DNA from: Candidatus Lokiarchaeum ossiferum
Lineage (GTDB): Archaea; Asgardarchaeota; Lokiarchaeia; Sigyniarchaeales; Promethearchaeaceae
Assembly (NCBI GenBank): GCA_025839675.1
Contig: CP104013.1
Location: 2,977,121 to 3,041,120 of the forward strand
Reading direction: 5' to 3'
DNA length: 64,000 nt
Shown here in pieces: positions 29,521 through 38,971 of the stretch. Every line of letters starts with the position of its first letter. Position 1 is the stretch's first letter. The translations under genes and the position numbers were made by a program. Under the pieces are notes generated by a model. That model did no database searches. It saw only the letters and a program-made list of their open reading frames with translations, and had not been told where the DNA came from.

Positions 29521-29928
29521 ATGTCAGATACAGTGCCAATACTTGCAATAATTTTTTCATTTCTATCTACTTTAATACTTTTCCTTTCAAACTACCTTAG
29601 GGAAACTAAGTTTAAGCAAACTTCTAAAATATATCAAATGAAACTTGACTTTTATTTAGAATTAATGGAAGAAATTACTTCAATAATATATCTCGGTTGT
29701 AATATAAAACAAAATATAAATAAATTATACCAAAAAGCTTTGATTTTATCTTCTGATCAGGTAATCAGGGAATATAATTCATTACTTTCAAGATTGGATG
29801 AAACAAAATGGGAAATGAAAGAAAATAGTGATATAAAATTAGCACAAAAACTTTTAATTGAATATAGAAAAGATTTAGGATTAAAAACAGCTTTATCCTC
29901 CTATGAAATAAAAAAACCATTCAATTAA
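29521..29928 (+). CDS. Hypothetical small membrane protein
   Basis: The N-terminal TM helix is ILAIIFSFLSTLILFL and the rest is helical and lysine-rich. Confidence 0.3.
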   Translation: MSDTVPILAIIFSFLSTLILFLSNYLRETKFKQTSKIYQMKLDFYLELMEEITSIIYLGCNIKQNINKLYQKALILSSDQVIREYNSLLSRLDETKWEMKENSDIKLAQKLLIEYRKDLGLKTALSSYEIKKPFN

Positions 29929-30021
29929 CCAACCTGGATTCATAGAATTATATAAATATAGTTCTCGTAGTAAATACTCATGATAGAATATAAAAAGTTG
30001 ATAAAATTTATATAAAAAAAT

Positions 30022-30351
30022 TTATCGTAAAACATTACGCATTTGGACTTTTTGCATTTCATTTTTTAAGATACTAATTTCATCTTCTAATTCCTTGATC
30101 TTTCGGTAAAAAAATATGTCTGTTTCTTTAAGGATGTTTCTATTTCTTCGATCAAAAGACAATCCAATATTATATTTAATTAAGTCTATTGTAATATTAT
30201 CCAATTCCTTTATATCATATTGTTCAAGAAGATAATGAACATTGTAATCAATTACATCTTTACTTTCAAAATTTTGATTGCAATTATGACATTTATATAC
30301 TCCACCAAATAAATTGATTTCTTTCTGACATTTTGGACAAACGGTATACAT
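30022..30351 (-). CDS. Zinc-ribbon (CPxC...CHNC) coiled-coil protein
   Basis: MYTVCPKCQKEINLFGGVYKCHNCNQNF provides four Cys ligands. The C-terminus is a coiled coil. Confidence 0.4.
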   Translation of the reverse strand: MYTVCPKCQKEINLFGGVYKCHNCNQNFESKDVIDYNVHYLLEQYDIKELDNITIDLIKYNIGLSFDRRNRNILKETDIFFYRKIKELEDEISILKNEMQKVQMRNVLR

Positions 30352-30810
30352 GATGTATTATAATTGATCTAATTGCTTAAAAATCTTTTAAAAGAAAAAA
30401 AAAAAAAAAGATTATGAATAATTTTGCTCTTCTTTCATGAAAGATATTATTTTTTGTTCAATTTCGTTATAAGATTCGACAGTAAATTCGGAACTATAAA
30501 TTTCGTTTGCGATTAGTTTAATTGTAGTATTGAATGAAAACTTTGATCGAATTTGGCGATAATTACCTGTCCAGAATATATCAGGAAAGAATAATTCGCA
30601 AGGTATTGTCAAATTATTTGATTGTGTCATTAAAATACGACCTCTGACAAATATTTACTTATAAAATTATTGTAAATCATTTTCTTATACTTATAGGATA
30701 ACATAGAATATTTAAATGTTTGGAAATTGACAAAAATCAAGAAAAAAGTTGGAAGAACAACCGAATTCATGAGTAAACATTTAAAATTTGAAGATATCCT
30801 GACAAAAAAA

Positions 30811-31857
30811 TCAGACTTTAGATGCAAGATCATCTAAAAATTGCTGATCCGCGTTAGCAGAAATTCCTTGATCTTTCGGTTTTTGACTAATGCGGGCATC
30901 GCTAACAGATAATTTGCTCGTTCCACTTGTAAAATCATAGATGGACTTATTCACATAATAATTTGTCATGGAAGCTAAAGTACTAACTTGCGAAGCGAAA
31001 GGCGCGTAAAGTAAGCATATCTGTTTTCCAATTTGAATTGGGGGTTTTCCTAAAATCTTAAAGGTGGCTTGAAAGATACTTTGTTCCTTTGCCCCGCCGA
31101 TTTGTTCTGCCAAATCATCTAAATCACTTTGCACGATGATTTCGGGAAAATGATCACTGTAAACTAATGATCCAAAATTGTTGGTCTTATAGATAGATGA
31201 AAGGCGTTGATTAGATGTATCATACCCTCCTGTTAAGTTAACTACACTTACAGATTGTTTCTGGGTTTAGTATCCGAAATCCCACACCGCATCGTTTGTC
31301 GTAGTCATATCTACTATTATGGACACGCCCTGGGTAGTAGTCATATCATCTGCGTGAATAAAAAGGTTAGATTCTATTCTAAAGCCCCAATTTTCATATG
31401 TACACAAAGTTCGATAAATTTCGTTAATTGTTTTCAGTTGGGCAATTGTGAAAATTGCATCTCGTTTTTTTGCATCACGTTCATCTAAGGTCAGGGATCG
31501 ATCGGGGGTGAATTTATAATGTTTCAACTTAGGAATAGGATTAAAATAGGCGATATTTTGGGATCGATAGTAGTCCTCTACTTGATCAAAGAAGGAATGT
31601 AAAATAGAAAGATTATAGCGTTTAGATGATTCCTTAAAATTATTAGGATGGGTATCTAAATAATTAAGATAATTCTCTGCATCAATACGGTTAATTTGTG
31701 TAACATCATAGATATTAATGTATTTTAGGAATCGTGTAATTGCACTTCGATACCCTGATTCAGTCCCTTTCCCTGTTCGCAATTTCTTAGTCAAATAGCT
31801 TTGGACAAGTTCCTGACTTTCAATTGGCATTAGACCTTCTAATTCAGTTAAAATCAT
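30811..31857 (-). pseudogene. Tyrosine recombinase/integrase-like gene interrupted by an in-frame TAA (at 31267-31269); C-terminal half degenerate
   Basis: The N-terminal 196 aa have a SAM-like integrase N-domain (SGYRSAITRFLKYI..., SKRYNLSILHSFFDQV) and a box-I-like GFRIES. ORF 30811-31134 is in the same frame with no other stop in 31135-31266. The C-terminal part resembles an integrase (SMTNYYV, cf. TTxxYTHV), but the HxxR position reads FQATF. Confidence 0.45.
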
Positions 31858-32321
31858 TCAATTAGCCCCCATTTTTTACTTTTAGGCTTAAATTCAATCC
31901 CTTTGCAATTTGAAAGAATATTATTAATCATTTCACTATCTACATCTAATAATTCACGCAATTTTGTTCTCGATTGATCACCAAATATTTCTAAAGTCTT
32001 AAGAACTTGTTTTTCATAGTCCGTGGTAGGGATATTGGACATGTTTTTCTTCATTTCCTGCATCATTTCCCCTAGCATCATACGCATGTTGATTTCCATA
32101 TCATCTATCTTTTGATCCACTTTTTCGATTTCATTTACAAGGGATTCCTGCTTGGTGGTTGTTTGCTGTTCCCCATACACTAATTTGTTCATAGTATTTC
32201 GAACAATTTTAGATAAAGGGATGTTGGATTTAGTCGCATAGTCTTTCCATGCAATTAAATCTTTAGGCGATACACGAATGGTATATTTTTCCTTTTTTTC
32301 TTGATGAACTAATTTCGGCAT
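31854..32321 (-). CDS. Ribbon-helix-helix/CopG-like putative regulator (excisionase-like position)
   Basis: The N-terminal KYTIRVSPKDLIAWKDYATKSNIPLSKIVRNTMNKLV is RHH-like. Its 4-nt overlap with the integrase-like gene start suggests an operon. Confidence 0.4.
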   Translation of the reverse strand: MPKLVHQEKKEKYTIRVSPKDLIAWKDYATKSNIPLSKIVRNTMNKLVYGEQQTTTKQESLVNEIEKVDQKIDDMEINMRMMLGEMMQEMKKNMSNIPTTDYEKQVLKTLEIFGDQSRTKLRELLDVDSEMINNILSNCKGIEFKPKSKKWGLIE

Positions 32322-32685
32322 TGTATCCTCAAACAGTAATTACCTGCAAAAGTATATAAAAGTATGGACAAATCATATCAATTGACCATACGTTTGATCT
32401 TGTTAATAAAATTTTATGAAAAAAAAAAAAATGGATGTTGGTTAATTGGGTTAAATTTGGTTTCAAACGATATTAATCATGAACCGGATATATACAGTAG
32501 GGAGTTATGATGTACCGACGGTATAGGTTGGTTTGATAATAATTATTGCTTCGATTCGACATGACTATGACAACTCATTGTATTATGTAATACATAATAT
32601 TTTTTGTATTACAGTAAATAATAGGAAATTCAAATATATAAAGTAACACATAAATTTTTTCTGTATTACCTTCGTTTATTATATT

Positions 32686-33363
32686 ATGGGAGGAAAGCCC
32701 AATCAAAAAACTCCATCGAAAGTATTTACAATTCGAATCGATGAACTGACTCTCGCCGAATTAGAAATGATCAAGAATATTCAATCGGTGAAATCTACGG
32801 GCAAGTTAATTAAGCAAGCAATAAATACATATATTGCAATGAATCCCTATAATCCTGAAAGACCAAATCCAAAGCTTATTATGAGCTATAATATTTTTAA
32901 GCCTCTTATGGATCTTGCTTCAGATGACGTTTTACGAGAGATGGCCCAAATTTCGTATGACAATGGGGTTTCCGATACAAAAAATATCCAACAAGAGTTA
33001 TTACGATCTGGATTGAAATATGAACATACATTTAAAGACGAAGTGGAACAGGTGATTCATGTTTTAGATTTTGTTCTAAAACCCCAAGGGCAAAATTGGT
33101 TTTACAATGCATCTTACCAGCTAAAAAACGATCAATTTTTTATCAAAGGAGAGCACGCCTTAGGAAAAAATTTTTCTATTTTCATTAAATATCTCCTTCA
33201 AAACTATCTCAAGGAGGCAAATATGGAACTAATTCAGGAAGACTATAGTGAAATTCAAAGAATCCAGAAAAACATTAAAGGAATTCCCACAAATACTATA
33301 ATTAATGGGGTAAGTTTTTTTTTCCAGCAAAAAACGACTCAAAATGCAGAACCTATAGAATAG
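32686..33363 (+). CDS. Hypothetical protein with N-terminal RHH-like segment
   Basis: The RHH-like segment is VFTIRIDELTLAELEMIKNIQSVKSTGKLIKQAINTYIA. A near-perfect 19-bp palindrome lies about 90 nt upstream. Confidence 0.35.
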   Translation: MGGKPNQKTPSKVFTIRIDELTLAELEMIKNIQSVKSTGKLIKQAINTYIAMNPYNPERPNPKLIMSYNIFKPLMDLASDDVLREMAQISYDNGVSDTKNIQQELLRSGLKYEHTFKDEVEQVIHVLDFVLKPQGQNWFYNASYQLKNDQFFIKGEHALGKNFSIFIKYLLQNYLKEANMELIQEDYSEIQRIQKNIKGIPTNTIINGVSFFFQQKTTQNAEPIE

Positions 33364-33513
33364 ACTAGAACTTTTATATTCGTTTTAAAAATTTTTATTT
33401 TTAGCAAAATCTTGAATTCCTATGTGAGCAATGCTCATTTTCAGATCCTTTATGTGGGAAGTATCATTGTACTAAATAACTAACTGGTATAGAAGGGAAG
33501 GGAATTGAAAAAA

Positions 33514-37349: not shown

Positions 37350-38153
37350 TTACTCTTTGATTTTTTCACTTAATTCAGCCTTCTTCTTTTTATCCCTGAT
37401 ATATACGAGTACGTTAGCAAGTATTAACATGAGAACTAAAACTCCGAAAATAATGTAAAAAATCATATTGAACATTCCAGATTTTTGATCTAATTGATCG
37501 AGAGTCATTTTTTTAATATCATCACTAGTCATATCTACAAATATGATACTCCCCAAATAAGAAAAAAATAAAGCCCGAGGAACCGATCCGACAGCAGTTG
37601 CAATGTAATATTGTTTGGCTTTAATGTTGGATAACCCTGCAGCATAAGAAATAGGATCAAACATGATCACGGGAACTGCACGACCAACAATAATGGCCCA
37701 AATTCCCCATTTTTCGATCCATTCATCCATAATTCCAATTATTTTGTCGGCAATACTGAGTTTGTCTCCTGTTGCTTCTAAAATTGATCGACCACCTTTA
37801 TTTGCTACATAATATGTGATTGCAGCACTGAGCATAGATCCAATCACCCCTAAAACTGTTCCTTTCCAAAATCCAAAAATGATTGAACCGGAAAGAAGAA
37901 TCAATTCGGAAGGAATGGGTGCTATTAAACTTTGGATCACCATTAGGGCTAAAAATATAAAATAAGCCCAAAATCTCAAATCTATTAAGGGAATAATGAA
38001 ATATTTCAAAATGGTTTCAAATAGAAAGGTCTCTTCTACAATAGTAAGAATAAATACTCCTACAGAAATTATTGCAATGAGGATAAAGATGATGGCCATG
38101 AACGCTTTTTTTTTGGTCCATTCAAATTTGTGTTTATCTTGATTTTCTATCAT
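37350..38153 (-). CDS. DedA/TVP38-family membrane protein (paralog 2)
   Basis: It has the DedA-type core (GKGG...WG..AIIVGRAVP..MFD.ISYAAGLS) and multiple TM helices. It is about 75% identical to the neighbouring paralog. Confidence 0.7.
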   Translation of the reverse strand: MIENQDKHKFEWTKKKAFMAIIFILIAIISVGVFILTIVEETFLFETILKYFIIPLIDLRFWAYFIFLALMVIQSLIAPIPSELILLSGSIIFGFWKGTVLGVIGSMLSAAITYYVANKGGRSILEATGDKLSIADKIIGIMDEWIEKWGIWAIIVGRAVPVIMFDPISYAAGLSNIKAKQYYIATAVGSVPRALFFSYLGSIIFVDMTSDDIKKMTLDQLDQKSGMFNMIFYIIFGVLVLMLILANVLVYIRDKKKKAELSEKIKE

Positions 38154-38971
38154 TATTCTTCAATTTTTTCTTGAATTTCTTGATGCGATTCACGATTATT
38201 CTTCTTTTCTCTTATATAGACAAGTAAATTGGCAAGTGCTAGCATCAAAACGAGTACACCGAAGATAATATAGAAGATTGTATTAAATTGCCCAGATACT
38301 TCTTCCAACCTTCCTGGAGGCAAATTCCGAATATAATCTGGATCTCGATTATCACCGAAGACTTGATTTCCCAAGAAAGCAAAGAAAAAGGCGCGAGGAA
38401 TGGAACCAATAAGAGTTGCAATATAATATTGTTTGGCTTTGATATTTGACAATCCCGCTGCATAGGATACTGGATCAAACATAATTAAGGGGACTGCGCG
38501 ACCAACAATGATAGCCCAAATACCCCAGCTTTCGATCCATTCATCCATAAGTCCAATCATTTTATCAGCAATACTCAACTTATCCCCAGTAGCTTCTAAG
38601 ATAGCACGTCCACCTTTGTTTGACACATAATAGGTAATTGCAGCACTGAACATAGATCCAATTACGCCTAGTACAGTTCCCCACCAAAAACCAAAAATTA
38701 AGGATCCGGAAAGAAGAATTAATTCAGAAGGTATCGGAGCAATTAAGCTTTGGATCACCATAAGAAATAGAAAAACAAAAACAGCCCAAAAACCGATTTC
38801 CAGTAAAGGTACTATAAAATAATCCCTTATTATAGTAAATAGGAAGGTTTCATCCATAATGGTAAGAATAAAAACCCCTACAGAAATAATAACGATAATT
38901 ATAAAAATAATGGCCATAATAACTTTTTTTTTTGTCCATTCAAACTTGCGTTTTTTGTGATTTTCTGACAT
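38153..38971 (-). CDS. DedA/TVP38-family membrane protein (paralog 1)
   Basis: The motifs match those of paralog 2. Its stop overlaps the downstream gene's start by 1 nt. Confidence 0.7.
   Translation of the reverse strand: MSENHKKRKFEWTKKKVIMAIIFIIIVIISVGVFILTIMDETFLFTIIRDYFIVPLLEIGFWAVFVFLFLMVIQSLIAPIPSELILLSGSLIFGFWWGTVLGVIGSMFSAAITYYVSNKGGRAILEATGDKLSIADKMIGLMDEWIESWGIWAIIVGRAVPLIMFDPVSYAAGLSNIKAKQYYIATLIGSIPRAFFFAFLGNQVFGDNRDPDYIRNLPPGRLEEVSGQFNTIFYIIFGVLVLMLALANLLVYIREKKNNRESHQEIQEKIEE

Follow-up and report, generated by a model that had tools for sequence, protein, structure and literature searches.

The cryptic (defective) prophages of Escherichia coli K-12 carry truncated or fused integrase pseudogenes, and in archaea the integrases of some viruses, those of the SSV1 type, are split by integration. 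Tailed viruses of Asgard archaea are represented by the verdandiviruses, members of the Caudoviricetes (Medvedeva et al., bioRxiv 10.1101/2021.07.29.453957), whose description matches the contexts of the tail-protein relatives reported below, a likeness by description. The papers searched on viruses of Candidatus Lokiarchaeum ossiferum deal with another provirus, one with a DJR capsid, found in strain B36, which has 97.2% ANI to strain B35 (bioRxiv 10.64898/2026.02.13.705702), and they make no mention of the locus analysed here.

The locus lies in a window of 64,000 nucleotides, the whole stretch of DNA that was analysed and to which all coordinates refer. It is a frame of 348 codons on the minus strand (31857..30811), which is with high confidence a chimeric pseudogene, left behind when an integrated virus or mobile element decayed, codons 1-141 coming from an integrase gene and codons 142-348 from a baseplate-hub gene. 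This is ordinary provirus decay, and the frame is neither a degenerate nor a recoded recombinase; the catalytic part of the integrase was lost by deletion or fusion rather than by point mutations. The similarities with the cryptic prophages of E. coli K-12 include a remnant that would have been fixed by loss of its recombinase, deletions joining unrelated phage genes, nonsense mutations, an atypical GC content and orphan genes. Unlike in E. coli K-12, the host is an Asgard archaeon, the core-binding domain of an integrase is joined in frame to the C-terminus of a tail hub, and the parental virus has metagenomic relatives only. The locus is thus a defective-provirus scar of a familiar kind, in an Asgard archaeon, and involves no new mechanism. 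Its main value is a correction, as the annotated gene NEF87_002532 and the small ORF that follows it are one chimeric pseudogene, and the apparent integrase motifs of its distal part are coincidences within tail-protein sequence. In addition, it is a trace of head-tailed virus DNA once carried by the lineage of a cultured Asgard archaeon, and it leads to two families not yet characterised, one of integrases that have an obligate partner gene upstream and one of hub proteins whose N-terminus is greatly extended; the two families are known from metagenomes only and could help to identify Lokiarchaeial viruses.

Translation of the minus strand from 31857 to 30811 gives 196 sense codons, a TAA (31269-31267), 151 further sense codons and a TGA. 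This agrees with an earlier note on this DNA, which had placed the ORFs at 31270-31857 and 30811-31134 in one 348-codon frame broken by a single TAA, with 132 nt free of stops between them. After the TAA, translation could first start again at the GTG at 31134, and the distal part has its first ATG at the Met of the string SMTNYYV. At the stop-codon frequency of the surrounding island (0.070 per codon, all six frames), 44 stop-free codons have a chance probability of P = 0.04 and 151 of P = 2e-5. The geometry alone proves little, since three of the four same-frame neighbour pairs with one stop between them in the window are ordinary tandem genes; the frame is judged to be broken because homology crosses the stop.

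The TAA and the junction are real sequence and no error of the reference assembly, since two independent short-read Logan assemblies span both the TAA and the junction at 31435|31434, SRR32148622 being 100% identical to the window from 32319 to 31027 and SRR32148623 from 32319 to 31147. A sequencing error, which the earlier note had kept in play as the cause of the TAA, is therefore unlikely. The TAA is codon 197 (31267..31269, minus strand) and falls inside the hub-derived segment, 55 codons past the junction. In the hub alignment it occupies a variable column (K/S/Y/Y/S/S/I), so that a single base change, from AAA, TAT/TAC or TCA, suffices to produce it. A reassignment of TAA can be rejected because it is the commonest stop of the window, where it terminates 34 of the 44 long frames (at least 200 codons), the others ending with TAG (9) or TGA (1). 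The hub-derived fragment itself terminates with TGA, which is rare in the window (1 of 44 long frames).

The 5' fragment (codons 1-141; 31435..31857, minus strand) is shown by Pfam, by a family profile and by tblastn to derive from a tyrosine-recombinase gene, of which it holds the core-binding domain, the linker and the first turn of the catalytic domain. The SAM-like integrase domain seen in the earlier note is genuine. Indeed, aa ~23-95 match PF13495 with 31.9 bits (cut-off 27), and the same N-terminal region matches PF02899 with 23.4 bits (cut-off 22.3). Beyond this domain, sequence searches of the fused protein against Pfam, PHROGs, NCBIfam and PDB returned nothing, and in Pfam there was no match to PF00589 at E<=10. 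When 1.84e9 representative proteins were searched exhaustively with phmmer, the fused sequence being the query, two separate groups of homologues emerged, A and B. The members of group A (P0004, P0006, P0007, P0009 and others) have 313-402 aa and match aa ~2-167 of the query only, with complete recombinases of ~340 aa covering aa ~10-147. They are complete tyrosine recombinases, PF00589 being found in P0004 and P0007, and the identity of the frame to the N-parts of full integrases amounts to 36-45%. In P0007, PF00589 begins at FFTIDQL, which corresponds to IFTIAQL (aa 135-141) in the window, so that about seven residues of the catalytic domain survive. The alignment of group A displays GMRISE, ARKS, HKFR, LSNH and the Tyr, and none of these positions is present in the window. 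The catalytic residues R-K-H-R-H/W-Y are absent, as the window sequence leaves the integrase family before box I, and recombinase activity of the frame is impossible. Word-indexed homologue searches, for which the fused protein and the hub alignment served as queries, retrieved no sequence but the N-part of the query itself; scans of IMG/VR with the integrase alignment and with a four-sequence hub alignment gave no relatives, and the integrase N-part had no match in a collection of genome contigs that apparently does not contain L. ossiferum.

The 3' fragment (30811..31434, minus strand) comprises 207 codons and the original stop, and is shown to come from a head-tailed archaeal virus, namely from the 3' end of its baseplate-hub gene. 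The homologues of group B (P0003, P0005, P0008, P0013, P0024, P0026, P0030) are tail proteins of 669-992 aa, which match aa 136-345 of the query across the stop. Their genes are always located in tail modules, directly after a gene of ~160 aa. In particular, on the contig L001 a tape-measure gene (phrog_5493, E 1e-16) precedes the hub module, and an HK97/encapsulin-type capsid gene (PF04454) lies on the same contig; P0005 has a weak match to phrog_4930, baseplate hub, and P0003 comes from the 49.9-kb contig SRR27843389_1016. The full-length relatives have their gene in a tail module, downstream of tape-measure and distal-tail genes, whereas the window copy has lost this upstream context. The fragment corresponds approximately to the last 210 residues of these proteins and reaches their natural C-terminus with no frameshift, which points either to recent decay or to some constraint, given its one stop. 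A predicted-fold search also returned baseplate hub proteins, and the predicted fold of the fragment is that of the hub domain (gp27/gp44/gpJ-like). Among the matches listed were the T5 baseplate hub pb3 (9.4), tail-tip proteins of the phages 7-7-1, Chi and JBD30 (8.5-8.3), E217 gp41 (8.3), lambda gpJ (8.0), Mu gp44 (7.8) and the hub of Haloferax HFTV1 (7.2), and VgrG-type proteins were also among them. Sequence identity to T5 pb3, lambda gpJ, Mu gp44, T4 gp27-like and HFTV1 hubs is only 3-13%. In contrast to these hubs, the window copy is both incomplete and interrupted: of at least 669 residues it keeps the final ~207, with the TAA among them, and it is unable to build a hub.

Some features of the hub relatives are worth recording. 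In P0003, P0005 and P0008 (contigs L001, L004 and L005), which are the closest, the hub-like domain is C-terminal and follows a Ser/Thr/Tyr-rich region of 450-780 aa with BNR/Asp-box-like motifs such as SxDxGxxW, and P0008 has a weak match to PF02012 there. This order differs from that of hub proteins whose hub domains precede the extension. The more distant relatives P0013, P0024, P0026 and P0030 have further sequence after the hub-like region.

The join was located with an integrase profile, made from 18 full-length homologous integrases, and a hub profile, both built without the window sequence. The integrase profile gave 133.9 bits for aa 1-141, -1.5 bits for aa 142-196 and -2.9 bits for aa 198-348, versus -1.2, 16.5 and 124.8 bits with the hub profile, which scored aa 142-348 as one domain with 151.7 bits. 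In tblastn, the integrase of L002 (aa 29-160) stops at 31435, and the hub of L001 begins at 31434. Ten integrase homologues extend three codons further, K-T-I, to 31426, and one hub begins at 31440. The same or similar residues occur in relatives of both parents, P0006 reading ELKTIM and the hubs KTV or KTI. Since the integrase and hub alignments overlap at K-T-I (31426..31434, minus strand), the breakpoint lies within ~9 nt that either parent could supply, and by its sequence this zone is possibly a breakpoint microhomology.

In the origin we propose as the most likely, an illegitimate deletion, possibly at the 9-nt K-T-I microhomology, would have joined codon ~141 of the integrase to a point ~207 codons before the end of the hub gene, taking out the whole catalytic domain. 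If both genes belonged to one provirus, the deletion probably also took away the genes for replication and for the head, and most of those for the tail. The nonsense TAA would have been created by a point mutation, either before or after the two genes were fused. The island of ~5.9 kb would then have become fixed in the chromosome, because no recombinase activity was possible. The sole possible product would be a protein of 196 aa, made of the core-binding domain and 55 hub-derived residues and co-transcribed with the upstream gene ORF155. The in-frame join, which a random deletion has a 1-in-3 chance of producing, needs no selection. A layout of the kind expected for the parent is found in L009, from the 215.8-kb contig SRR22273277_212 (integrase P0007), where the partner ORF and an intact integrase lie on one strand, followed by a leftward VapE-like primase module and then by a run of co-oriented genes, the last of them a tail-tube gene (PF18906), with FtsX-type genes on the other side. 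By comparison with this locus, one deletion in such a layout would give exactly the arrangement of the window and would take nearly the whole virus with it. No retrieved locus combined an integrase of group A with a hub of group B, and a single provirus as the source of both halves is thus only inferred; it is possible that two adjacent elements were joined instead. In BLAST, the structural genes of L009 had no similarity to those of the hub-bearing contigs.

The remnant might have been put to use after its formation. According to this hypothetical reading, the truncated 196-aa protein would have been co-opted together with ORF155. If still expressed, it might bind related viruses at their arm or core sites and so act, as a decoy or in the manner of a repressor, in immunity against superinfecting relatives. 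The remnant would then have been domesticated and would not be junk; we consider this improbable.

It is also quite unlikely that the frame consists of two real genes, namely a 196-aa core-binding-domain protein with a natural TAA and a small hub-like ORF that starts at a GTG or a TTG. Such a division corresponds to the records, as the N-part is identical to NEF87_002532 of L. ossiferum, listed as a 'core-binding domain' hypothetical protein, and a 100-aa product (P0002) is on record for the C-part, called from a TTG at 31113; tandem same-frame pairs with one stop are common in the window, as noted, and ORF155 and its overlap with the integrase start are intact. However, hub homology runs as one continuous in-frame domain over aa 142-347, through the stop and the 44 codons without a start, and the last 55 residues of the supposed 196-aa gene are themselves hub sequence. 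Moreover, all examined integrase relatives of 313-402 aa continue into a catalytic region; two further relatives, P0016 (159 aa) and P0025 (201 aa), are short. The residual ORF with the GTG start (107 aa; 30811..31134, minus strand) represents the final stretch of the hub fragment and no gene of its own, the hub profile being continuous upstream of its start.

A split integrase of the SSV type is very unlikely. The attP would then have been inside the integrase gene, and integration would have split the gene and set its N-part against the hub gene of an older provirus. The arrangement does recall SSV1-type integrases in that an N-terminal fragment of an archaeal integrase abuts foreign DNA, and the break falls between the two integrase domains. 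On the other hand, tblastn found neither the reciprocal integrase C-part nor a hub N-part elsewhere in the 64-kb window, and no tRNA-like sequence is present at the junction. Likewise, there is no tRNA-derived att, as no tRNA fragment repeat was found and the uL2 gene stands between the tRNA-Lys gene (26756-26830) and the island. The homologue in L009, flanked by FtsX-type genes, is intact and was apparently integrated unsplit.

The earlier note had favoured a full-length tyrosine recombinase decaying in place, with one nonsense codon and a catalytic half that drifted to degenerate motifs, and this is extremely improbable. Its starting points are sound, as the frame is integrase-sized, the SAM-like domain is real and the three strings that it named, GFRIES, SIFQATF and SMTNYYV, do occur in the frame; GFRIES does resemble the box I sequence GMRISE. 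Nevertheless, MAFFT and BLAST place GFRIES on box I only by opening gaps of ~10-16 residues, which would have to have been deleted, whereas the hub alignment has no gap there and sets GFRIES opposite WIWYVG or WMWYVT. Its Arg, taken for that of box I, therefore lies in hub-derived sequence. Similarly, SIFQATF, read as a degenerate HxLRHxF, aligns with EIFQTSF or EILQIEF of the hub family, and SMTNYYV, read as the Tyr motif, with SAKYFVN or SAKYYVN. Gapped BLAST does carry some integrase alignments through GFRIES to aa 172-181, and the profile test argues that these are spurious. Together with the lack of PF00589, the distal 207 residues have a score of 0 bits or less with the integrase profile against 151.7 with the hub profile, and no recombinase was found among the 60 fold matches listed. 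What stands of the earlier note's interpretation is that the integrase gene is dead and that it marks a defective element; its catalytically degenerate C-part, the distal 60% of the frame, is hub sequence.

Finally, programmed readthrough or recoding of the TAA to give a functional fusion of 347 aa is scarcely credible: the fusion is in frame, its distal part has no frameshift and the locus may be transcribed, but TAA is the standard and commonest stop, a random deletion is in frame by chance in one case out of three, the product would be a core-binding-domain/hub chimera and no recombinase, having neither a catalytic domain nor the first ~460 or more hub residues, and phmmer found no relative with such an architecture among the 1.84e9 proteins.

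The chimeric pseudogene is situated in a low-GC island of orphan genes (approximate extent 27624..33504, ~5.9 kb), as delimited by its GC content, 0.23-0.31 versus 0.37-0.43 in the flanks, and by the bordering genes for ribosomal protein uL2 (PF03947) and a nitroreductase (PF00881). Apart from the chimera and ORF155, the ORFs of the island have no significant family matches and no detectable viral homologues, and a PADLOC scan of them gave nothing significant. The only related genome retrieved was the Promethearchaeota MAG AMARA_1, found via the nitroreductase flank with 61% identity. Its synteny begins exactly at the nitroreductase gene and holds on that side only, so that this distant genome does not fix the ends of the island. 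Repeats at the island ends are short and AT-rich only.

ORF155 (31854..32321, minus strand) is the partner gene that lies immediately upstream of the integrase and overlaps its start. Its homologues are the ORFs that directly precede the integrase in L002 (3878-4348; E 7e-12), L009 (9561-10001; E 1e-16) and L010 (9529-10017; E 5e-4), and ORF155 has a weakly ribbon-helix-helix-like N-terminus with weak RelB/DUF6364 matches. Members of this family of ~150 aa are always found immediately upstream of this integrase family, overlapping its start. From these comparisons, ORF155 and the integrase appear to be a conserved two-gene module of which the 5' half survives here, and ORF155 may be a regulator or excision factor of the element.

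Both Logan contigs with the chimera (L007, L008) begin exactly at 32319, inside the ATG of ORF155, and their ends differ; if these runs are RNA-seq, 32319 would mark a leaderless transcript over ORF155 and the chimera. A TTTATATA box is present at 32360-32353 on the minus strand. The promoter and terminator scan used a sigma-70 model and is uninformative for an archaeon. Divergent from ORF155, the island also holds ORF225 (32686-33363), whose N-terminus looks RHH-like by eye, and its part with the lowest GC (0.23-0.30) contains three plus-strand orphan ORFs of 224, 255 and 135 aa (27865-29928). None of these four ORFs has a significant family match.

Several short repeats were observed as well. 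An exact direct repeat of 19 nt, AATTCCTTGATCTTTCGGT, is found at 30089-30107, within the zinc-ribbon ORF109, and at 30862-30880, near the 3' end of the hub fragment. The two copies of AATTCCTTGATCTTTCGGT are in different reading frames and have no similarity past the 19 nt, and when the 25-kb region was simulated with a Markov-1 model, just 0.5% of the simulations contained a repeated 19-mer of any kind. The near-palindromic TAATAAAATTTTAT has exactly two copies, 27691-27704 and 32404-32417, both intergenic and at the two ends of the island (chance expectation 0.56, with up to 1 mismatch allowed). At both sites, GTATGGACAAAT (27738-27749 and 32362-32373) lies ~30 nt from TAATAAAATTTTAT, in opposite order. 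These elements may be what is left of att sites or operators, or may match by chance, the DNA being rich in AT. Elsewhere in the window, two tandem paralogous genes on the minus strand (37350-38153 and 38153-38971) share a stretch of 300 nt at 80% identity.
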